This document shows positions 1,397-42,343 of a DNA stretch of 44,362 nucleotides, one piece after another (position 1 is the stretch's first letter; each line of letters starts with the position of its first letter). A model generated the notes under the pieces. The model was not told the DNA's origin. It ran no database searches and worked only from the letters and a program-made list of their open reading frames with translations. Made by a program: the position numbers and the translations under genes. Origin of the DNA: a phage; sequence record PZ445525.1; one strand, given 5' to 3'.

Positions 1397-2917
1397 ATGA
1401 CCGTTAACGTTGACAACCAGCACCCACTTTATGCGCGCATCGCGCCGGAGTGGAAAATGATCCGCGATTGTGTAGCAGGGGAGCGCGCCGTGAAGGCGTG
1501 CGGCCCCTTGTACCTGCCACACCCAGCCAGCGGCGATAACACCGACCCGAAATCACGGGCGCGATATAAGGCGTATAAGCAACGCGCTGTATTCCTGAAC
1601 GCCACCGCCCGCACACTTAACGCACTGTTAGGCGTTGCCTTTGCTAAACCGGTAAGTCTTGACCTTTCCGGGGCGATGGCGGACCTGATTGACGACGTAG
1701 ACGGCAGCGGTATGCCGCTGCCACAACTCCTGCGCGGTGCTATGTCGGAAGTGCTGCAATCAGGTCGTGCGGGCTTTATGGTGGACTACGATCGCCAGGC
1801 GCATTTTGATGAACTGGGTAACGTAGTGCCGCAGACAGCGGCTGAGATGGCGTCACATCGCCCGCTTATCCGCCTGTACACGGCAGAACAGATCATCAAC
1901 TGGCGGCAGACCCACGGCGTCGATACGCTAATTGTGCTGAAGGAAACGGACGAAATCAGCACTGAAGATCCGGACGATTTCGCAAACCACGAAGTAACAA
2001 TCTGGACCGAGCTTCGCATGATTAACGGTGCGGCACACGCCCGCCGCTGGTTTTATAACGCGGACACGTCCGAGGTGCAAATGGACTTGCCGCGTGGGTT
2101 TACCCGCACCGACCTTGTTCCGCTGGTGGATGCTGCCGGTCGTGCGCTTACTCAACTTCCGTTTTGCTGGTGCGGCGCGGTGGATAACAACGCAACGCCA
2201 GACGCCGCGCCGCTGGCGGATATTGCGTCCATCAACATTAAGCACTACAACGCCGAAGCGGACGTCGCCGAGATTGCGCACATCGTGGGTCAACCTACCC
2301 TGGTGACAACGGGCTTGACTCAATCATGGGCTGACAAGAATCTGAAGGGCGGCATTGCCCTCGGTGCGACTAAGGGCGTTATTCTGGGTCAGAACATGGA
2401 CGCTAAACTGATTCAGGCGGAGGAGCGCAACTTGTCGGTTGCACTGTGTGAGCGTCGCGAATTGCAAATGGCTAAACTTGGCGCGGCCCTGGTCGAGAAG
2501 GGGACCGCACCTAAGACGGCAACTGAAGCGGCCTACGATGCGCAGACTGATAACAGTATCCTGTCGCTTATTGCCGGTAACGTTGAGAAGGCTTTCAACC
2601 GCGCGCTGCAAATCGTCCAGCTATTCACAGGCGACACCGCCGACCAGCGTGTGACGCTGAATAAGTTCTACACCGAGATCACGGTTGATGCGCAGCTTAT
2701 GACCGCGATGATGTCGGGTGTGCAGACGGGTACGGTCCGCCTGGCTGATTTCATCAAGTGGATGATGGCGCAGGGTGTCATCGACGACTCGCAAACCGTC
2801 GAGCAGGTGGAAGACGAATTGCGAAATCAGAATCCATTGCCTCAAATGTCCCCTGATGCGGTAGAATCTACCGAAGAAGACCCGGACAAGGTAGCGGACA
2901 ATGGCGAAGACAATTAA
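1397..2917 (+). CDS. portal protein
   Basis: 506-aa ORF immediately after terL with RBS aaggaaacgacc; size and position typical of portal; acidic C-terminus. Confidence 0.75.
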   Translation: MTVNVDNQHPLYARIAPEWKMIRDCVAGERAVKACGPLYLPHPASGDNTDPKSRARYKAYKQRAVFLNATARTLNALLGVAFAKPVSLDLSGAMADLIDDVDGSGMPLPQLLRGAMSEVLQSGRAGFMVDYDRQAHFDELGNVVPQTAAEMASHRPLIRLYTAEQIINWRQTHGVDTLIVLKETDEISTEDPDDFANHEVTIWTELRMINGAAHARRWFYNADTSEVQMDLPRGFTRTDLVPLVDAAGRALTQLPFCWCGAVDNNATPDAAPLADIASINIKHYNAEADVAEIAHIVGQPTLVTTGLTQSWADKNLKGGIALGATKGVILGQNMDAKLIQAEERNLSVALCERRELQMAKLGAALVEKGTAPKTATEAAYDAQTDNSILSLIAGNVEKAFNRALQIVQLFTGDTADQRVTLNKFYTEITVDAQLMTAMMSGVQTGTVRLADFIKWMMAQGVIDDSQTVEQVEDELRNQNPLPQMSPDAVESTEEDPDKVADNGEDN

Positions 2918-4004
2918 TCAATATTTGGCGGATCGAATGATTCGCCGTCACATCTTCACCCAGCGCTTGAGCAATGATCAGGCGCGGAGGGTGCTGGCTA
3001 TGTGGGAGAAGTTCCGGCCCGCTTTGCTGGGCAAGTTGACCGAGTTACTTGATGGCAAAAAGTCCATGAGCAACAAGGCACTTACCACACTGTTAACGCA
3101 ACTCGACAAGACCGTCAAAACGGAACTGCGCGCCGAGTTTAAAGTGCTGGCGGAGAGCCTTCAGGAGTTCGCCGACACCGAGGCTGATTATCTCGCCGAT
3201 ACATTAACGGCAGCGATCCAGCCCGCGGTCGCCGTACCGGCTGTCGAGGTGGTGGGTGTTGTGACCGGCGCGCAGATCGCAGCGACTGCAATGAAAAACC
3301 CGTTCCAGGGAAACACCATGATGCAATGGCCCGATTCACTTTCCGAGTGGACCCGGACGCAGATCGGCAATCAGGTGCGCGCTGGATTCATCCAGGGCAA
3401 GCCTACTATTGAAATTATTGCGGACGTGAGGCGCGCGCTCGGCGGTCGTAGTGCGCAAGCAATCTCAAGCGTTGTTAAGTCCGCGGTCAACCACTATGCG
3501 GCGACCGCCCGCGAATTAATGGTAAAAGCCAATGACGATATTCTCGAAGGTCGCCAATGGTTGGCTACATTGGACACGCATACTTCTCCCATGTGCCAGC
3601 TACGCGATCGCCTGTTTTATCCAGTTGGTGTTACTCCCGACACAAAAGGGAAGCGCGGCGGGAAAGTGGTGGCGGGGTCACAATATGGCGCGGGTCCTGG
3701 CAAGCTGCATTATTGCTGCCGTTCGACGGAGACGTGGAAAGTCAAAGGTATGGAGGATTGGCCCAGTGGTAAGCGTCCGGCACTGAAGGCTGATGCGGGC
3801 AGATTGCTGAGTGAGCAGGTCGACGCGCAGACTGATTTCTTCTCATGGGTGCAGCGCCAGCCTCGCCATATTCTGGAGGAGTTATATGGGGTGCAGCGCG
3901 CAGATCAGATTATGCGAGGCGTGAAAGTGCCGAAGATGTTCACCGATACTGGCGAATTAATGACTATTGCACAGCTTAAAAACCGGGGGTTATGGCGTGA
4001 TTAA
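2901..4004 (+). CDS. head morphogenesis protein (Mu F / SPP1 gp7-like minor head protein)
   Basis: 367-aa ORF overlapping portal stop; position after portal; W-x-T-L-D-T-H-T-S-P-M-C region recalls the phage head morphogenesis domain (recollection, unsearched). Confidence 0.55.
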   Translation: MAKTINQYLADRMIRRHIFTQRLSNDQARRVLAMWEKFRPALLGKLTELLDGKKSMSNKALTTLLTQLDKTVKTELRAEFKVLAESLQEFADTEADYLADTLTAAIQPAVAVPAVEVVGVVTGAQIAATAMKNPFQGNTMMQWPDSLSEWTRTQIGNQVRAGFIQGKPTIEIIADVRRALGGRSAQAISSVVKSAVNHYAATARELMVKANDDILEGRQWLATLDTHTSPMCQLRDRLFYPVGVTPDTKGKRGGKVVAGSQYGAGPGKLHYCCRSTETWKVKGMEDWPSGKRPALKADAGRLLSEQVDAQTDFFSWVQRQPRHILEELYGVQRADQIMRGVKVPKMFTDTGELMTIAQLKNRGLWRD

Positions 4005-4305
4005 GTATGCCGCGATCGGATTGGTTATAGGTCTGGCGGTTGGATTCTGGCAGGGTGATTCCTACCGCACTGGCGTTGAGGCGAGAGCGGCGCAAGAAGC
4101 GCAAGCGAAAGCCCAACGGCAGCAAACTAAGGCTGTCGAGGGGTCTGTGAAGGCAGAACAGGCCCGCGACGTGGAATACAGGACCATCACGAAAGAGGTT
4201 GTAAAATATGTTACGCGTCCTAACCGTCCTGATTGTAGTTTTGATGCTGAGCGCGTGCGGATCAAGCAAAGTGCCATCGATGCCGCTAACCGAGTCGGTC
4301 TATAG
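3997..4305 (+). CDS. i-spanin (Rz-like); start uncertain (ATG 3967 or GTG 3997)
   Basis: N-terminal TM helix IKYAAIGLVIGLAVGFW then Ala/Gln/Lys-rich helical periplasmic part; contains an embedded out-of-frame lipoprotein ORF. Confidence 0.55.
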   Translation: MIKYAAIGLVIGLAVGFWQGDSYRTGVEARAAQEAQAKAQRQQTKAVEGSVKAEQARDVEYRTITKEVVKYVTRPNRPDCSFDAERVRIKQSAIDAANRVGL

Positions 4306-4438
4306 ACCGCCTTGCACCTTTGAGAATGCCTCGTCAGATCCAGACGAAGACTTGCTGGTTGATGTTAAGAATATGGAGTGTGGGGCGAAGCTGAGGGCGC
4401 AAGTGCTGGAGTTGCAGAAAATAATTCGGGGGCCGTGA
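4208..4438 (+). CDS. o-spanin (Rz1-like outer membrane lipoprotein)
   Basis: 76-aa ORF starting inside the Rz-like gene in another frame and extending past it; signal peptide with lipobox L-S-A-C; Pro-rich mature region; RBS agagg. Confidence 0.6.
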   Translation: MLRVLTVLIVVLMLSACGSSKVPSMPLTESVYRPPCTFENASSDPDEDLLVDVKNMECGAKLRAQVLELQKIIRGP

Positions 4439-4449
4439 TGGCCCCTTTT
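4428..4449. terminator. bidirectional intrinsic terminator between convergent genes
   Basis: GC hairpin ggggcc-gtgat-ggcccc followed by TTTT; overlaps Rz1 stop and lies 3 nt from the stop of the minus-strand gene. Confidence 0.55.
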
Positions 4450-4451
4450 CG

Positions 4452-5216
4452 TTAGCGCGGAATACCGCAAATCTCGTTTAACGTCTTCACGTCCAGCGCC
4501 ACCGCCGTGGACTTCGGTTTGTCCGGGTATGGAATGAACTGTTCCACTTCAGGCCACGCCTTGATCAGCTTCTTATCGGTATTGTGCATATCCAGCACGC
4601 CGGTAACGGTTAGTTTGAACGCGTCATACTTAGCTCGTAATTCGCGGCGGGCCTTGTCGTTACGGTCCAGGCGCTTACAGAAAGCATGATCTGCCGGGTA
4701 ATCCACGCGACCGCGCGGAAGATATATCGGCAGCGCTTTCCCGTCCTCGTCCAATTCACACACTGACGCGAGCATCTCTTCTTCGTATCCGGGTACAATA
4801 TCGCCGAGGTCAGGCGCGAGTTTGTTCATGTATTTGATGTCCCAGTATCCTCGATGTGTGCGGTTTTGGCGTCCGTCGCCACTCAATGACAAGGTGCGAA
4901 CATTTCCGCCTGCATTGATTTCGAAAGTGGCGTCATAAACGCTGCCGATACCTTTCGGGCGGTCGGTGTCATAACGATACTTCGCCTTGTTGGGGTAGAC
5001 GCAGACGCAGTATGTGGGTGACTCGGATCCTTCTAATGCTTCGATGTGTGCGCGTAACTCGGCGAACGTGCGAATGCCTTTTGGCATACAGTCCAGCGTA
5101 ATGGCGTACGCCAGGTCGCGAGAGTCCATCATAATGGATTTGGCTTCGGTCGTGATCGCATGGTCGCGCAGGATGTTAGCCAGAATCAGGTTTTTAATAT
5201 CTTTCGTCAGTCTCAT
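4452..5216 (-). CDS. hypothetical protein (reverse-oriented moron inside head module)
   Basis: 254-aa ORF from ATG 5216 with RBS gagga; the longer six-frame ORF (to 5624) adds a low-complexity N-terminus antisense to the scaffold gene, so the internal start is preferred. Confidence 0.6.
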   Translation of the reverse strand: MRLTKDIKNLILANILRDHAITTEAKSIMMDSRDLAYAITLDCMPKGIRTFAELRAHIEALEGSESPTYCVCVYPNKAKYRYDTDRPKGIGSVYDATFEINAGGNVRTLSLSGDGRQNRTHRGYWDIKYMNKLAPDLGDIVPGYEEEMLASVCELDEDGKALPIYLPRGRVDYPADHAFCKRLDRNDKARRELRAKYDAFKLTVTGVLDMHNTDKKLIKAWPEVEQFIPYPDKPKSTAVALDVKTLNEICGIPR

Positions 5217-5245
5217 TTGTGTGTCCTCGTTGTTGGTGTGCAACC

Positions 5246-5274
5246 AATATATGCAACCAATACGAGGATTGCAA
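5246..5274 (-). promoter_or_regulatory. candidate sigma70-type promoter for the reverse moron
   Basis: -35 TTGCAA (5269-5274), 17-nt spacer containing ATTGGTTGCA, -10 TATATT (5246-5251), second ATTGGTTGCA copy at the predicted start site. Confidence 0.4.
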
Positions 5275-5281
5275 GCGAATT

Positions 5282-5310
5282 TTGCGATTATTTTTATCGC
5301 TGATAATATT
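5282..5310 (+). promoter_or_regulatory. candidate promoter for scaffold/capsid genes
   Basis: TTGCGA, 17-nt spacer, TAATAT upstream of scaffold RBS aggggga; weak prediction. Confidence 0.3.
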
Positions 5311-5364
5311 AGAAGCGTGAAGTCGAGCGGGTGGCCTGCTCTGCCACAATCCCAGGGGGATAGC

Positions 5365-6069
5365 ATGAATCTTACTAAAGCAGAATATGACGCGTTGCCG
5401 GAAGGTATGAAGGCGCTTTTTGTTGCCGATGGCGACGGGTATAAATCAACATTCATGACCGCCGAAGAGGTACAGGCGGAAATCAAGGGTCTGAAAGACA
5501 ATAACGCTAAGCTGGTGAGCGAGAAGAAAGCAGAAGCTGAACGCCGCGCCGAAGCTGAGCGCCTTGCGAAAGAGAAAGAGGAAGCCGCCGCGCGCAAAAA
5601 TGGCGACCTCGAAGCGATCGACAAGTCCTGGAAGGATAAGTTTGCGAAACACGAAGCAGATACATCGGGAAAAATCGAAGCCTACCGCAAGCAGATCCAC
5701 GATCTCACCATCGGCAGCGCTGCCAAAGACCTGGCATCAAAGCTGTTCGGTAAGAATGCCGGAATCATGCAACGTCACGTTATGGATCGCCTGACGCTGG
5801 AAGACGGCGAAGACGGCAGCTTGAAAGTGCGTGTATTGCAGGATGGCAAACCGTCCGCTCTTACTATGGAAGAACTTGAAAAAGAGTTCCGTAATAACGC
5901 CGATTTTGCATCCGTCCTGGCTGGCACGCCAGCCGGTGGCGCGCCTAGCAAACCGACGCAGGTTGTCGAAGATGTGAAGTCGAAAATCACTATGGGCCAC
6001 AGCTTCGGTATCACTGACCTTACGAAACAGGCAGGTGAAATCATCGCTAAGATGGGCGACGACGAGTAA
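5365..6069 (+). CDS. capsid scaffold protein
   Basis: 234-aa Lys/Glu/Ala-rich helical protein (AEAERRAEAERLAKEKEEAAARK) directly upstream of the major capsid gene; RBS aggggga; the six-frame ORF start at 5014 is rejected because that part is antisense to the moron. Confidence 0.6.
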   Translation: MNLTKAEYDALPEGMKALFVADGDGYKSTFMTAEEVQAEIKGLKDNNAKLVSEKKAEAERRAEAERLAKEKEEAAARKNGDLEAIDKSWKDKFAKHEADTSGKIEAYRKQIHDLTIGSAAKDLASKLFGKNAGIMQRHVMDRLTLEDGEDGSLKVRVLQDGKPSALTMEELEKEFRNNADFASVLAGTPAGGAPSKPTQVVEDVKSKITMGHSFGITDLTKQAGEIIAKMGDDE

Positions 6070-6166
6070 GCAGATTGCCCGCGAAAGCGGGCAATTTTGC
6101 GAGCGCATAAATCTAAGGTAACATTAACGTCACTGGGCGAATGCTCACAACTCAAAGGATTTCGAT

Positions 6167-7267
6167 ATGTCTTTAACAGTGTTCCAGCGTAAACTCGTCA
6201 CCGCGGTTACGCAAATGATCCCCGACAACCTGAACGTGTTCAACGCTGCCGCTAATGGTGCTGTTGTTCTCGGCACAGGTGAAGTGCTGAAGGATGTTGT
6301 AGAGAAAATGTCCGTAGGCTTGATCGCCAACCTCGTTACCGACCGTAACGCCTATGCCCCTGTCGGTACTCCGGCAACCGCTAAAGTGCTGGCGCGTATG
6401 CTGACCAACTCGGTTAACCTTTCCGCGAAAGTTGGTCCGGTAGCAATCACGAAGGCCATGATGGCTAAAATCGAAACCAACGTTAACAGCGTTGCGGCTG
6501 AGATTGCGGCGCAGGCTACTCAAGCGATTATGCTGCACTACCTGAAAGCTGGTATCGGCGCAAGTAAAGCGGCGATCGAAAGCAACGCAGCGGCAAAATA
6601 CACCCAACCGGCGCGCGTTGACGGCGTTGGTGGTCGTACCTTCCCGACCCTGGCAGACTTCCCGCTGGCGGCTTCTAAGTTCGGCGATCAGGCGTCTTTG
6701 ATTAAGTCGTGGTTTATGGACGGCGTTACCTGGGCAAACTTCATTGCGTACCAGGCACTCCCTTCCGCTGAACAGGTATTCGCAATTGGCGATCTCCAGG
6801 TAATGGGTGATGGCCTGGGCCGTCGCTTCATTATCTCCGATGCCGCTGCCGATGCTATGGGCGCTGGCACAATGCTGGGTCTGGTCCCTGGCGCGGTTGC
6901 AGTTACCACCAACGGCCTCGATATGCTGGCGCAGGAAAAAGGCGGTAACGAGAACATCGAGCGCTGGTGGCAGGGCGAGTTCGACTTCAACGTGGCTGTT
7001 AAAGGCTATCGTCTGAAGGCGTCCGCTCGTACCCCGATCGAAGGCGTCCGCTCGTTCAAGCTGGACGATATCACCACTTCCGCTAACTGGGAACTGGACC
7101 AGGGCCAGGTAGACAACGCACCGGCAACCGTGCAGGATGTTGGCGCTGTGGGTGATGGCGATACTAAAGGTCGTCGTAAGACCCAGGCCGCACAGGCAGT
7201 GCCTACCCGTCACATCAAGGAAACCGCTGGCGTACTGGTTACGCTGACTGCGACCACCGCGTCTTAA
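6167..7267 (+). CDS. major capsid protein
   Basis: 366-aa ORF with RBS aaagga following the scaffold and followed by a strong terminator; Ala/Gly/Val/Thr-rich composition typical of HK97-fold capsid proteins. Confidence 0.8.
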   Translation: MSLTVFQRKLVTAVTQMIPDNLNVFNAAANGAVVLGTGEVLKDVVEKMSVGLIANLVTDRNAYAPVGTPATAKVLARMLTNSVNLSAKVGPVAITKAMMAKIETNVNSVAAEIAAQATQAIMLHYLKAGIGASKAAIESNAAAKYTQPARVDGVGGRTFPTLADFPLAASKFGDQASLIKSWFMDGVTWANFIAYQALPSAEQVFAIGDLQVMGDGLGRRFIISDAAADAMGAGTMLGLVPGAVAVTTNGLDMLAQEKGGNENIERWWQGEFDFNVAVKGYRLKASARTPIEGVRSFKLDDITTSANWELDQGQVDNAPATVQDVGAVGDGDTKGRRKTQAAQAVPTRHIKETAGVLVTLTATTAS

Positions 7268-21246: not shown

Positions 21247-21326
21247 GGTATCATCTCCTATATTTGGTTGAGTTTTAGTATTACACCGCTCGATCAAGAA
21301 TGCAACCAATTTATGAGGATTTAGCT

Positions 21327-24121: not shown

Positions 24122-24183
24122 TATGTGGTCCTTTTTAGCGTGGGGCCTTATTGCCCCGACGCGTTAACTATAGTGCAACCAAC

Positions 24184-24654
24184 CTATTGGTTGCAAGTAA
24201 ATTTTGCAACATTTATTGCGTAAATTTTCGGGACCAAATCGCTACACGCCCGGCGAATTGCCGCGATGTTCTTCGGACAGTCTTCAATGATGACCAGTTC
24301 CGACACGTCCGCATAGCAGACCATTTTGAACACCGCGCACGCTTTAAACTCTGGCGGCGGGGTGTCGTCCAGCATGTGGCGCATAAACAACCGCCCTACG
24401 GGGAATACTTCCAATTGCTCGGCGGTGGTTTCCCAGCATTCACGCTGCCGGTTTGTCAAATACGCTATCTCGAAGCCTTGCTCTTTGTACATGCGCAACA
24501 GCGGCAGCATATCCATGTTCAGGTCTTCGCGTACGTGCGCTTTGTGCCACTTCGCCCAAAAAGTGGATTTGGTTTTTATACCCGGCACCAGGTCGGCGCG
24601 TGCATCACTCGAACCATTAATAACGCCATCCAGATCACAAATCAGTAGTTTCAT
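24184..24654 (-). CDS. HAD-superfamily phosphatase
   Basis: N-terminal motif I L-I-C-D-L-D-G-V (DxDG[TV]); 156 aa. Confidence 0.55.
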   Translation of the reverse strand: MKLLICDLDGVINGSSDARADLVPGIKTKSTFWAKWHKAHVREDLNMDMLPLLRMYKEQGFEIAYLTNRQRECWETTAEQLEVFPVGRLFMRHMLDDTPPPEFKACAVFKMVCYADVSELVIIEDCPKNIAAIRRACSDLVPKIYAINVAKFTCNQ

Positions 24655-24884
24655 TTTAATTCCTCAACCAAATCCGAACGAACAACTCTGGCGGAAAACT
24701 TGTTACACACAAGATGCCAATTTGCGGTTATGACAAGCCAGCCGGTAAGGTCCAGACCCAGGATATATTCTGGACGTGGCACTCGCTTCACACGACCGCG
24801 GCGTTGGTCGATGTTATAGTCTCTTTGCATTTGGTCTACTACCGCGGGGTCGCGGTCAACGATTAAGATATTCATGTAACTCAC
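24651..24884 (-). CDS. hypothetical protein
   Basis: 77-aa ORF translationally coupled within the minus-strand operon. Confidence 0.4.
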   Translation of the reverse strand: MSYMNILIVDRDPAVVDQMQRDYNIDQRRGRVKRVPRPEYILGLDLTGWLVITANWHLVCNKFSARVVRSDLVEELK

Positions 24885-25786: not shown

Positions 25787-25867
25787 CGTGTTGTCTCCAG
25801 GTATTAAAAAGGGCGTCCAAACCGGACACCCTCAATATAATGCAACCAATCTTATTATGCAACCAAT

Positions 25868-26191
25868 TTACGCATAAAAGTTCGGGTCGCGTGCAACGTC
25901 TACCAAGTAAAGGTTGCTTATGCGGTTGCCGTAGTGCCCTGGAGTGCGCTGGCGGCACACAACGGCGAAGCCTGGAGGGATTGTATTGCCCGTCGCAATA
26001 ATCCACGCCACGCGTGCGCCAGACAGCGTCTTGCCGTTGTATTCGATACGTGTTCCGCCATCGGCAGTGTTAAGGTTGCCAATCTTGCCGCCTGTGGACT
26101 TCAGGCGGATGACGCCGGTTTTGCTGTCGTAGGAAAAAAGCTGATTGGTCATCGCCACTGAAAAGTCGATGGCGTCGAATGTAGTATTCAT
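25868..26191 (-). CDS. hypothetical protein (possible HNH/NUMOD4-like endonuclease)
   Basis: 107-aa ORF; pattern YDSKTGVIRL...GK...GY resembles NUMOD4/HNH homing endonuclease N-termini; ATGA overlap with upstream stop. Confidence 0.35.
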   Translation of the reverse strand: MNTTFDAIDFSVAMTNQLFSYDSKTGVIRLKSTGGKIGNLNTADGGTRIEYNGKTLSGARVAWIIATGNTIPPGFAVVCRQRTPGHYGNRISNLYLVDVARDPNFYA

Positions 26192-28798: not shown

Positions 28799-29077
28799 CT
28801 ACGCGACCAATTCAGCAACCAATAAATCGCAGTCGGCTATGTTGTCGATAACGCGAACGTCAGCACCGCGGCGGGCCATTCGCTCATGTTCACGTACCTG
28901 GTGCGGCTTCGGTTTTCCACCTGGGCGCTTCACTTCGACGAACACTATTTTGCCGTTAATGATGATAATCAGGTCGGGCGCACCCGCGTGCCCCTCCCAT
29001 GCCAGTTTTCGGCAGAATCCGCCAACATCTTTCACCCGTTTCATAAGGTGACTCTGCACCTTGCCTTCTGGGGTCAT
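28799..29077 (-). CDS. VRR-NUC domain nuclease
   Basis: G-A-P-D-L-I...V-E-V-K PD-(D/E)xK signature in a ~90-aa protein; adjacent to SNF2 helicase as is common in phages. Confidence 0.6.
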   Translation of the reverse strand: MTPEGKVQSHLMKRVKDVGGFCRKLAWEGHAGAPDLIIIINGKIVFVEVKRPGGKPKPHQVREHERMARRGADVRVIDNIADCDLLVAELVA

Positions 29078-35280: not shown

Positions 35281-35310
35281 ATGATAGATTGGTTGCAGGA
35301 TGGGTGTCAA
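35281..35310 (-). promoter_or_regulatory. candidate leftward early promoter
   Basis: minus-strand TTGACA, 18-nt spacer containing TGCAACCAAT, TATCAT. Confidence 0.4.
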
Positions 35311-38094: not shown

Positions 38095-38164
38095 ATTTTG
38101 CGCGCATTGGTTGCCATTTTGAGTGTTTCTAGCCGGTCGTATTGGTTGCCGTGTAGTGTGAACA

Positions 38165-38362: not shown

Positions 38363-38516
38363 AATCCGGGGATTGCAAAATACACGGCAGCATGATGCGA
38401 AGTGCGGTCGCGGATGAACTAGGCAACCAATGCCAGTTGTATTATGCGGAGTGAAAAACGCAGTTTGCAGTCACAGCAGATAGCGATCAACTTTTTCATG
38501 CGCGTGATTAATATTG

Positions 38517-38552
38517 GTTGCATTCAGCCCGGCACCCGGCTATATTGGTTGC
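38517..38552 (+). promoter_or_regulatory. candidate promoter for small early genes with paired ATTGGTTGCA motifs
   Basis: TTGCAT (within ATATTGGTTGCAT), 17-nt spacer, TATATT, then GGTTGCACACCAAC, the same string found at the moron promoter. Confidence 0.4.
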
Positions 38553-38574
38553 ACACCAACATGAGGGCTGAACG

Positions 38575-39083: not shown

Positions 39084-39353
39084 ATGAGCCGTAGGCGAGC
39101 TAAACAGCTTTCGTGGCATATTCCCCTGCATTGCATACGAATATGGGCTAAGAATGCGATTGAGGGCGATTCTGTGTACTGGAGCTATCGCGACGATGTG
39201 AAGCCGTTGACGCAGACTCGCTACTTGCACCAGTTCGCAGCACAACACGATTTCAGGGTGCGTACTTCCTTGCAACCAATGGGGATTCGTATTACATTAC
39301 GCCGGAAGCCCGCCGTTGAGCGGGTAGGCAAACACTGGAGACTGAGCAAATGA
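39084..39353 (+). CDS. hypothetical basic protein
   Basis: 89-aa ORF with RBS aagggg; contains an in-gene TTGCAACCAAT copy. Confidence 0.45.
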   Translation: MSRRRAKQLSWHIPLHCIRIWAKNAIEGDSVYWSYRDDVKPLTQTRYLHQFAAQHDFRVRTSLQPMGIRITLRRKPAVERVGKHWRLSK

Positions 39354-42140: not shown

Positions 42141-42170
42141 TTGACTTGCAACCAACATAGAGGCCATACT
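42141..42170 (+). promoter_or_regulatory. candidate promoter with TTGCAACCAAC motif
   Basis: TTGACT, spacer containing TGCAACCAAC, CATACT; followed by palindrome TATTGGTCC-tc-GGACCAATA (42297-42316). Confidence 0.3.
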
Positions 42171-42343
42171 GCGACCAATAAACGAGAGGAGTAATACACT
42201 ATGGCACGTAATGATATTTGGGTATTGGCAATATTGTCCACCGCAGCATTTATCGGTATGGTTATTTGCGAACTGTCATAACCCGCCACAATAGGGACCG
42301 TGGTATATTGGTCCTCGGACCAATAACCAGGAAGTTAATTAAT

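Follow-up and report, generated by a model that had tools for sequence, protein, structure and literature searches.

The DNA analysed here (44,362 nucleotides, record PZ445525.1; hereafter the window) is from a Dhillonvirus-type E. coli siphophage that shares 92–94% nucleotide identity with PaulFeyerabend and SECphi18. The head morphogenesis gene (2901–4004) is followed by the Rz/Rz1 spanin pair on the plus strand (3967–4438; PHROG 2536, 5672 and 1267), which consists of Rz (3967–4305) and Rz1 (4208–4438, stop codon at 4436–4438), and further downstream by the scaffold gene (5365–6069) and the major capsid gene (6167–7267). Between the spanins and the scaffold gene, inside the head module, a 254-aa gene was observed on the minus strand at 4452–5216, reading from an ATG (5216–5214) to a TAA stop (4452–4454) without internal stops, as the preliminary description of this DNA had claimed. 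This reverse-strand gene is already known: it is nmad5, a catalogued and previously studied phage gene. Its neighbours in the window are the spanins and the scaffold gene, with no adjoining modification gene, and its composition (GC 52.9%, or 0.529, against 0.546 for the window; GC3 63%, or 0.63) resembles that of its neighbours.

The stop-to-stop frame of nmad5 is open upstream to about 5681, and the list of open reading frames contains a 390-aa version starting at TTG. We took the ATG at 5216 as the start because a Shine-Dalgarno sequence, GAGGA (5228–5224, minus strand), lies 7 nt upstream of it, and because the N-terminal MRLT is kept in homologues; it was present in every Nmad5 homologue, down to about 20% identity. 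This ribosome-binding site, which the preliminary description had also read, is identical in SECphi18 and PaulFeyerabend.

The preliminary description recognised no family for the product, its sole factual error. The protein matches the Pfam family PF18757 (Nmad5) with an E-value of 3.3e-53 and 181.2 bits (gathering cutoff 27), and the match spans residues 1–253 of the protein and the full length of the model (positions 1–206 of 206). It belongs to PHROG 1965, whose function label is "unknown", and its relatives carry the NCBI name "Nmad5 family putative nucleotide modification protein". Reciprocal profile searches returned PF18757 proteins only, and the family contains 369 representatives at 50% identity. 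The Nmad domain names are said to come from Iyer et al. in 2013; they do not appear in the polyvalent-protein paper of 2017. Searches of NCBIfam and PADLOC with Nmad5 gave no match, and the family profile, run against PDB sequences, gave only noise (E of at least 0.3). The structure-based fold search that the preliminary description had proposed was run: only other Nmad5 proteins were found in BFVD, and the predicted structure showed no likeness to any solved fold.

Comparisons of 32–51 diverse members showed that R2, L3, T4, I11, G104, T213, L217, W221, P222, E223, P229, L246, N247, G251 and P253 are at least 90% conserved, and all signature residues (RLT, G104, T213, L217, W221-P222-E223, P229, L246-N247, G251 and P253) are present in the window protein. 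This set is mostly structural or hydrophobic and contains no classic catalytic constellation. An A175-D176-H177 motif is moderately conserved in the family (57–67%), and, judged from conservation, R2, T4, T213, K215/216, E223 and N247 together with this motif may form a novel active site. In the structural model, DSSP pairs residue 2 with residue 213. Across Dhillonvirus the protein is 81–94% identical (84–94% for the genus proteins matched directly to that of the window), with near-invariant termini and the greatest variability at residues 51–90, and the window protein has an insertion of about 45 residues (about 111–165) that is common to close relatives only.

These comparisons also bear on the idea of an ADP-ribosyltransferase-like toxin; the R...S-x-S...E triad behind it had been put forward in the preliminary description as a weak inference. 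The proposed residues do exist in the window sequence, and the gene is toxic when cloned (PMC11846954). However, R81–R86 (RYDTDR) and G143–E147 (GYEEE) lie in insertions that are gapped in 23–24 of 32 members (72–75%), the RYDTDR region falls within the stretch that is most variable even in Dhillonvirus, and S110 and S112 are conserved in just 7 and 5 of 32 members, respectively. Nmad5 had no Pfam hit to an ADP-ribosyltransferase, and its predicted structure lacks the split beta-sheet fold of these enzymes. The reading is thus refuted at the level of both sequence conservation and fold, and we give it practically no chance of being right.

Regulatory signals on both sides of nmad5 are consistent with an independent transcription unit. 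A sigma-70-like promoter is predicted at 5274–5246 on the minus strand, with a -35 element TTGCAA (5274–5269), a 17-nt spacer and a -10 element TATATT (5251–5246). It has 9 of 12 consensus matches and was the sole hit of the promoter scan in 3900–6300, against 1.9 in shuffled sequences, so that it constitutes consensus-level evidence for an nmad5 promoter. The intergenic region (5217–5364) is 99% identical among three phages, although their Nmad5 proteins share just 86–91% identity with that of the window. The motif TGCAACCAATA was found 24 times genome-wide at two mismatches or fewer, against 11 ± 3.2 expected, a count reached in none of 100 shuffles. Two exact tandem copies on the minus strand (5239–5249 and 5252–5262), reading TGCAACCAATA on the plus strand and TATTGGTTGCA in the sense of the gene, overlap the spacer, the -10 element and the start region of the predicted promoter. 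The sense-oriented element lies 20–55 nt 5' of a ribosome-binding site and ATG in at least six non-structural genes. It is usually preceded by TA(A/T), giving TA(A/T)ATTGGTTGCA.

On the other side, a hairpin, GGGGCC-GTGAT-GGCCCC (4428–4446), is a candidate bidirectional terminator at the point where Rz1 and nmad5 converge. The stop codon of Rz1 falls in the hairpin loop, and the nmad5 stop at 4452 lies just beyond the hairpin. It was scored as terminator-like on both strands, with folding energies of -17.4 kcal/mol (plus) and -13.8 kcal/mol (minus) and modest z-scores of -1.9 and -1.65; its T-run is good on the plus strand and interrupted on the minus strand. An Rfam search of the whole window gave no match. 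The promoter with its genome-wide motif and the terminator shared with Rz1, both named in the preliminary description, are borne out as sequence-level predictions, and both promoter and hairpin are conserved. If the promoter belongs to the class of the replication and early gene clusters and is read by host RNA polymerase, nmad5 would be expressed early or in the middle of infection and not late, a timing derived from the consensus promoter and from our reading of the motif orientation.

To place the locus among relatives, we carried out the synteny comparison, from portal/Rz to scaffold, that the preliminary description had suggested. In eiAU, of the sister genus Eiauvirus (capsid 60% identical), the order is head morphogenesis, scaffold and capsid with nothing between them, and in the Klebsiella phage Border_ER3 (capsid 44% identical) the head morphogenesis gene likewise runs directly into scaffold and capsid. 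The spanins, too, are missing from this interval in both phages, so that the insert relative to the sister genera consists of the spanins and nmad5 together. Haito_Bas83 and SM_W22 carry an additional leftward gene upstream of nmad5, and in a metagenomic relative the island holds a DUF7438-like gene, Nmad5 and a NinC/PAPS-reductase-like gene. Within the genus, nmad5 occupies this position in about 150 of 159 Dhillonvirus records (counted as 150 records whose protein reaches 60% identity and 159 whose capsid reaches 80%). A search for related loci with an alignment of close homologues gave Dhillonviruses only. With its ribosome-binding site, promoter-like site and hairpin, nmad5 forms a separate leftward unit within an accessory island of varying content that, with the spanins, interrupts the head module; the island is old and nearly universal in the genus.

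Classical lambdoid morons are independent promoter-gene-terminator units between late genes. nmad5 resembles them in its promoter- and terminator-like signals, in its insertion between genes that are adjacent in insert-free relatives (eiAU and Border_ER3) and in being dispensable, but differs in that it is fixed across the genus and has neither a sporadic distribution nor a deviant composition. Expression from a prophage state, as in lambdoid morons, does not apply, since an annotated relative has no integrase. A recent horizontal acquisition was considered and rejected, as the composition matches that of the genome. The description of nmad5 as an opposite-strand moron thus holds for an independent, dispensable gene (PMC11846954) on a variable island missing in sister genera, and fails for a recent or sporadic one.

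Universal conservation as a core head component had been named as an outcome that would speak against the moron description; conservation was found within the genus, yet the gene is not a head component and its deletion leaves the phage viable (PMC11846954). A capsid-associated or head-assembly role would fit the position inside the head module, the near-universal presence there within the genus and an additional scaffold mutation in one phage that escaped the defence system Tmn (PMC11846954, Table 1). We nevertheless consider this role very improbable. The gene is on the opposite strand with its own predicted promoter, and eiAU and Border_ER3 build homologous capsids without Nmad5 in the head module. 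Homologues elsewhere, including those of lambdoid phages, M6, CN2, a Dinoroseobacter phage, and eiAU and C130_2, which have an Nmad5 at another place in the genome, lie in early or replication regions. In the relative EE09, the homologue CDS32 was not among the 24 proteins detected, whereas CDS28, 29, 30, 34, 35 and 36 were; this absence is weak evidence, as lysates and not purified virions were analysed and CDS32 is annotated with a truncated N-terminus. The literature shows the nmad5 product to be non-structural and dispensable.

Functional data come from a study of two Dhillonvirus phages, SMA8 and SMS22, by Yamashita et al. (2025, Commun Biol, PMC11846954). Their orthologues share both locus and strand with the window gene. 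These phages are different isolates from the window phage; the Tmn genetics were done there. The window protein is 84% identical to that of SM_S22, with K216 and the TDKKLIKAWPE motif identical. SM_S22 nmad5 is annotated at 334 aa and so overlaps the scaffold gene by about 200 nt; since it is the start of the 254-aa form that is conserved, the annotated product is 80 codons too long, and its K296 corresponds to K216. A K216E substitution allows SMA8 and SMS22 to escape Tmn, whereas deletion of nmad5 gives no escape and leaves a Dhillonvirus phage viable; the gene is toxic to clone (PMC11846954). In the window, codons T213-D-K-K216-L-I lie at 4569–4586 on the minus strand and encode K at the escape position, where a basic residue, K or R, is found throughout the family. 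Because a charge reversal and not gene loss changes the outcome with Tmn, K216E is best seen as an altered-function or dominant mutation.

Ksap1 of SECphi18, the trigger of KpAvs2 (PMC11564622), is comparable in being small, conserved in its genus, non-essential and subject to escape point mutations, but its loss of function or deletion gives escape, and binding to the sensor was shown directly (PMC11564622). Ksap1 is not the same gene: it is a separate, unrelated 74-aa gene at 24651–24875 on the minus strand of the window.

The gain-of-function genetics with Tmn (PMC11846954) could suggest a dedicated counter-defence protein against another immune system, which K216E retargets or extends to Tmn. 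Such a role would suit an accessory, dispensable gene on an island (PMC11846954), the lambdoid early operons in which Nmad5 stands beside ral and not far from anti-RecBCD genes, and the strong constraint on its surface motif and tail. We regard it as quite unlikely, however. Tmn acts on phages that carry wild-type nmad5, and the gene that does counter Tmn is another one, ORF35 of SMS22 (PMC11846954); wild-type Nmad5 thus gives no protection of the kind expected of an anti-Tmn protein, and no target system is known. There was no PADLOC-related match, the conserved motifs are common to phages of alpha-, beta- and gamma-proteobacteria, unlike a patchy defence target, and 81–94% conservation in the genus with near-invariant termini is unlike the fast diversification typical of anti-defence proteins. 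A DNA-mimic anti-restriction protein was ruled out separately by the isoelectric points of the family (median 7.3, range 5.2–9.5).

The family name rests on the association of Nmad5 with modification genes, which is contextual, is no requirement for homology and is not seen in the window. In M6, CN2 and SN1-type phages, Nmad5 lies within thymidine-hypermodification cassettes, between aGPT-Pplase and the dUMP hydroxymethylase. The gp56-type proteins of M6 share with the window protein the N-terminal RLT helix, the GG hairpin, the TTxK(K/R)LxxWPE motif and the LN..G.P tail, and both are single-domain proteins of about 190–250 aa; M6-type members have 186–187 aa and are encoded in modification cassettes, whereas the window protein is longer and is encoded away from such genes. 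In lambdoid prophages (HK542_033, the HK244 orf and E. coli prophages), homologues with 33% identity over the C-terminal part have a similarly accessory position, after N and ral in the pL operon. ral modulates host methylation, and early transcription of these homologues follows from the organisation of the pL operon. They differ from nmad5 in belonging to temperate phages, in lying on the same strand as their operon and in length (207–210 aa).

From such contexts Nmad5 could be an enzyme of DNA or nucleotide modification, or else an indispensable subunit or a targeting factor of such an enzyme. In Dhillonvirus it would put in place or adjust a modification, perhaps jointly with the Dam- and Dcm-like methyltransferases of the phage, with Tmn responding to the modification state. 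Besides the cassettes and the position after ral, this proposal draws on one Dhillonvirus relative in which the next gene after Nmad5, also on its strand, encodes a NinC/PAPS-reductase-like PP-loop protein, and on the few polar residues (R2, T4, T213, E223 and N247) that are at least 90% conserved; it is the reading favoured by the authors of PMC11846954. We find it improbable, for several reasons. No hypermodification genes occur near nmad5 in the window genome, and the only modification genes seen in a close annotated relative, Dam-/Dcm-like, are about 20 kb from nmad5. The 5-NedU pathway of M6 is complete with gp54, gp51, gp53 and gp52, without an Nmad5 protein, and the paper that reconstituted it never mentions gp56 or Nmad (PMC8989533). 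Type I and II restriction affects Dhillonviruses comparatively strongly, in contrast to 7-deazaguanine phages (PMC8594841). Nmad5 resembles no known enzyme fold, and the unchanged Tmn sensitivity after nmad5 deletion is hard to square with Tmn sensing a modification made by Nmad5. A constant pairing of Nmad5 with NinC/PAPS-reductase was discarded as a candidate: it was observed in one metagenomic relative only and is absent from the window, where a search for a NinC-like protein gave no match, and from a Stx2 phage locus.

Besides the TxKKLxxWPE motif, the C-terminus of the protein is strongly conserved. Comparison with homologues delimited a 20-mer, KSTAVALDVKTLNEICGIPR (codons at 4455–4514, minus strand), of which 19 residues are identical in a homologue of just 38% overall identity. 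Over the last 24 codons (72 nt) the two genes differ at 13 nucleotides, and within the 20-mer only one S is changed, to T. The family-wide core, A..L....LN...G.P, persists across phages whose hosts are alpha-, beta- and gamma-proteobacteria. The codons differ synonymously, and the invariant C-terminus is therefore neither a DNA-level element nor a product of recent recombination; by this comparison the peptide is under purifying selection at the protein level. Instead of docking to a partner, the motif could serve contacts within the protein or oligomerisation; model confidence at the C-terminus is only 52–76. P0047 and P0053, which contain only the C-terminal part, were considered as a portable form of the peptide and set aside, as they look like truncated or chimeric calls.

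Our best explanation as a whole, to which we give roughly an even chance, is that nmad5 is a dispensable, non-structural Dhillonvirus gene, expressed early or in the middle of infection, encoding a binding or adaptor protein. The 29-kDa alpha+beta protein would act through binding and not catalysis. One element would be the conserved RLT/TxKKLxxWPE patch, in which the strand R2-L3-T4 is paired with T213, followed by K215-K216-L217 and W221-P222-E223, and the second would be the invariant C-terminal peptide (...ALDVKTLNEICGIPR). Patch and tail would together bind a partner that is conserved among proteobacteria, be it a factor associated with DNA metabolism or replication, or DNA itself, and Nmad5 would thereby modulate the fate of newly made phage DNA. 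K216E might, for example, keep the partner in a complex by which Tmn is no longer triggered. The binding model would account for the occurrence of the family beside thymidine-hypermodification genes, beside ral in lambdoids and alone here, as well as for the toxicity of over-production in E. coli and the effect of K216E with Tmn, and motifs common to phages of three proteobacterial classes argue for a universal partner. A more specific form, which we hold only tentatively and think doubtful, is that Nmad5 is a small non-enzymatic hub whose C-terminal peptide docks on a universally conserved bacterial replication or repair factor. Lambdoids, M6-likes and Dhillonviruses, different as they are, would all employ it to steer new DNA to modification, recombination or protection, and single surface substitutions such as K216E would turn it into a dominant blocker of the signal sensed by Tmn, a KAP-NTPase defence.

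nmad5 is ordinary in that it is catalogued in Pfam and a Dhillonvirus orthologue has already been handled experimentally. The label "DNA modification enzyme", which is spreading in annotations and papers and rests only on an M6-like gene neighbourhood, is probably wrong or at least premature, given that there is no catalytic signature or known fold, that the M6 pathway was reconstituted without the protein and that Dhillonviruses are restriction-sensitive. For phage engineering, nmad5 is a known handle for evading Tmn. The K216E escape residue belongs to the motif that is best conserved in the family, whose members occur in phages of alpha-, beta- and gamma-proteobacteria; the partner of this motif and the C-terminal peptide, once found, would explain a widespread phage function and would probably also reveal what Tmn senses.

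The 3-kb region around nmad5 matched 159 phage records by megablast, the majority of them Escherichia phages of the genus Dhillonvirus, including PaulFeyerabend, SECphi18, Gluttony and others at 92-94% identity. PHROG assignments gave the gene order large terminase (1-1386), portal (1397-2917), head morphogenesis (2901-4004), Rz (3967-4305), Rz1 (4208-4438), nmad5 (4452-5216, minus strand; PHROG 1965, listed as unknown function), scaffold (5365-6069) and major capsid (6167-7267). The Rz/Rz1 spanin genes (3967-4438) were located inside the head module, adjoining nmad5 and apart from the holin/endolysin cassette (compared with PaulFeyerabend, L002 41854-42864). Elsewhere in the window, a homologue of Ksap1 lies between a Dam-like methyltransferase and a phosphatase gene (24651-24875, minus strand), with the wild-type, sensitive-state residues at both escape positions, L47 and T50; Ksap1 of SECphi18 is a 74-aa protein that directly activates Klebsiella Avs2 defence (PMC11564622).

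The minus-strand reading frame and ribosome-binding site of the preliminary description were both confirmed, as 4452-5216 translates without stops into 254 aa and GAGGA is found 7 nt 5' of the ATG. Upstream, no stop interrupts the frame until about 5681, which allows automatic callers to extend the gene too far. The SM_S22 copy was annotated at 334 aa (L033 561-1565, CDS0006); its 80 surplus codons, which run ~200 nt into the scaffold gene, account for the K296 versus K216 numbering of the Tmn paper. Since the MRLT N-terminus is kept throughout the family, the 254-aa start is correct.

The proposed transcription signals were also found. A sigma-70-like site (TTGCAA, 17 nt, TATATT; 5274-5246, minus strand), the sole one detected in 3900-6300, is overlapped by two exact copies of TGCAACCAATA (5239 and 5252), a motif enriched genome-wide (24 sites with <=2 mismatches vs 11 +/- 3.2 expected), and a GC hairpin with a terminator-like score on both strands (4428-4446) lies between the Rz1 and nmad5 stops as a candidate convergent terminator. 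The palindromic TTGCAA (5269-5274) could double as the -35 of divergent promoters. The 148-bp nmad5-scaffold intergenic region (5217-5364) is 99% identical in the window, SECphi18 and PaulFeyerabend, which exceeds the conservation of the coding sequence on either side; the Nmad5 proteins of these phages are just 86-91% identical to that of the window. The genome-wide element, TGCAACCAAT(A) of 10-11 nt, was located at 5239-5262, 21301-21311, 24174-24195, 25841-25868, 28814-28824, 35287-35297, 38105-38150, 38422-38553, 39271-39281 and 42147-42180, frequently as tandem or palindromic pairs spaced 13-35 nt apart. Oriented as ATTGGTTGCA, it lies 20-55 nt 5' of the RBS and ATG in at least six non-structural genes, namely nmad5 itself, leftward genes of the methyltransferase, helicase and polymerase cluster (after 25.85 and 28.8 kb), further, small leftward genes (21.3 and 24.2 kb) and a rightward gene (38.57 kb); among the motif sites across the window, no sense-oriented copy precedes a structural operon. 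TA(A/T) usually comes before ATTGGTTGCA, giving a -10-like TAnATT followed by GGTTGCA, so that TA(A/T)ATTGGTTGCA looks like the -10 plus discriminator consensus, or an operator, of one promoter class. The copies at 39271 and 42147/42170 cannot be read as simple sense promoters. From these features we infer that nmad5 is a member of the non-structural (early or middle) promoter class.

The protein had initially been assigned to no family, but it matches Pfam PF18757, 'Nucleotide modification associated domain 5', from end to end (E=3.3e-53, 181 bits vs a cutoff of 27), and neither the family nor this nmad5 locus is new. An exhaustive profile search recovered 369 representatives at 50% identity; with few exceptions these have a single domain and a length of 170-250 aa, and prophage members are named 'Nmad5 family putative nucleotide modification protein' by NCBI. 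The contexts of these genes are heterogeneous: in lambdoid phages and prophages the order is N - (orf) - ral - Nmad5 - ... - cIII - kil - erf - abc2; in M6, CN2 and SN1-type phages Nmad5 is included in the thymidine-hypermodification cassette between aGPT-Pplase and dUMP hydroxymethylase; and in a Dinoroseobacter phage it belongs to an early cluster, adjoining an exonuclease. The association with nucleotide modification is true of one branch only. In the Vibrio myovirus 1.017.O, NVP1017O_22 (L012 4557-5276) matches only the C-terminal third of Nmad5 (WPE motif and LN..GLP tail). Its location in a tail-gene cluster, directly after the putative tape-measure gene, is unlike every other Nmad5 context.

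Comparisons with sister genera supported part of the suggestion that nmad5 is a moron. Edwardsiella phage eiAU and Klebsiella phage Border_ER3, whose capsids are 60% and 44% identical, respectively, have the scaffold and capsid genes immediately after head morphogenesis, and the interval contains neither spanins nor a reverse gene. Two small genes come after the eiAU lysis cassette. Extra leftward genes just upstream of nmad5 in Haito_Bas83 (L031 1758-2087, minus strand; 109 aa, phrog_24635) and SM_W22 (L032 1761-2279, minus strand; 172 aa, no family) make the site a variable accessory island. In a metagenomic relative the island (L008 7746-9779) carries on one strand an 82-aa DUF7438-like protein, an Nmad5 with 44% identity and a NinC/PAPS-reductase-like (PP-loop) protein of 311 aa, the sole case found in this phage group of Nmad5 adjoining a putative modification enzyme. 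While this architecture is moron-like, recent or sporadic cargo was not supported: Nmad5 is at least 60% identical in about 150 records, vs 159 for capsid at 80% or more, and neither GC nor GC3 sets the gene apart from the remaining genome. In eiAU and Hungariovirus C130_2 an Nmad5 is encoded 5' of the lysis genes, in a non-structural cluster that runs rightward. All these indicated that Nmad5 has long been carried by the lineage and was relocated by Dhillonviruses.

Positions conserved in at least 90% of 32 and 51 diverse members (R2, L3, T4, I11, G104, T213, L217, W221, P222, E223, P229, L246, N247, G251 and P253) are dominated by structural residues, and the D176-H177 pair is just 57-67% conserved. 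In 48 Dhillonvirus-type sequences the protein hardly varies at residues 1-20 and 211-254, and variation is highest at 51-90. The last 20 residues, K(S/T)TAVALDVKTLNEICGIPR (codons 4455-4514, minus strand), differ by a single S to T change from a homologue 38% identical overall, although the last 24 codons contain 13 nucleotide differences. This conservation through synonymous changes reflects selection at the protein level; a conserved DNA element or recent recombination was ruled out by the same codon differences. Constraint of that degree is unusual in phage accessory proteins. The tail core A..L....LN...G.P and the TTxK(K/R)LxxWPE motif are retained in phages of gamma-, beta- and alpha-proteobacteria. 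A confident AlphaFold model (51-sequence alignment; pLDDT 83.4, pTM 0.78) has three helices at the N-terminus and a four-stranded sheet, together with a low-confidence lineage-specific insertion (about 111-165). Helix 178-209 is long, the WPE motif is carried by two short helices, and a disordered linker leads to another short helix at the C-terminus. The DSSP string of the model has residues 2 and 213 paired, which would bring the conserved N-terminus and the K216 motif into one predicted patch. A PDB sequence search with the family profile gave no match.

The speculative ADP-ribosyltransferase triad was rejected, because RYDTDR (81-86) and GYEEE (143-147) lie in segments gapped in 23-24 of 32 members, S110 and S112 are conserved in only 7 and 5 of the 32, and neither structure search returned such a fold. 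A structural role was weakly disfavored by lysate proteomics of the relative vB_EcoS-EE09: the Nmad5 homologue CDS32 was not among the 24 phage proteins, which included CDS28 (capsid), 29 and 30 (scaffold fragments), 34 (spanin), 35 (head morphogenesis) and 36 (portal), in agreement with the dispensability of nmad5.

Yamashita et al. 2025 selected Dhillonvirus mutants that escape the KAP NTPase defence Tmn, and the identical Nmad5 change K216E (K296E in the over-long annotation) arose in SMA8 and SMS22-delta-anti-Tmn; reverting it brought sensitivity back and introducing it alone gave resistance (PMC11846954). The delta-nmad5 phage was viable and still Tmn-sensitive, and nmad5 could not be cloned, apparently owing to toxicity (PMC11846954). 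K216E must therefore be an altered-function or dominant allele. A dedicated counter-defence role of Nmad5, one main rival explanation, appears quite improbable. The other, a role in DNA modification, is what the family name implies, and from that name alone Yamashita et al. termed Nmad5 a DNA modification enzyme (PMC11846954). We consider it unlikely: the M6 5-NedU pathway was fully reconstituted in vitro with gp54, gp51, gp53 and gp52, in a paper that does not mention gp56 or Nmad (PMC8989533), type I and II restriction is comparatively effective against Dhillonviruses (PMC8594841), and unchanged Tmn sensitivity after nmad5 deletion is a poor fit to Tmn sensing an Nmad5-made modification. Literature later than PMC11846954 adds nothing on the mechanism. 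K216 and its surroundings, TDKKLIKAWPE, are present in the Nmad5 of the window, and K216E reverses the charge at a residue that is basic across the family, on the most conserved surface of the protein. On the combined evidence, a binding or adaptor role is a better bet than catalysis, the absence of which is not proven, and the best-supported mechanism, which we favor tentatively, is that Nmad5 would be a non-catalytic adaptor acting via its conserved patch and C-terminal peptide.
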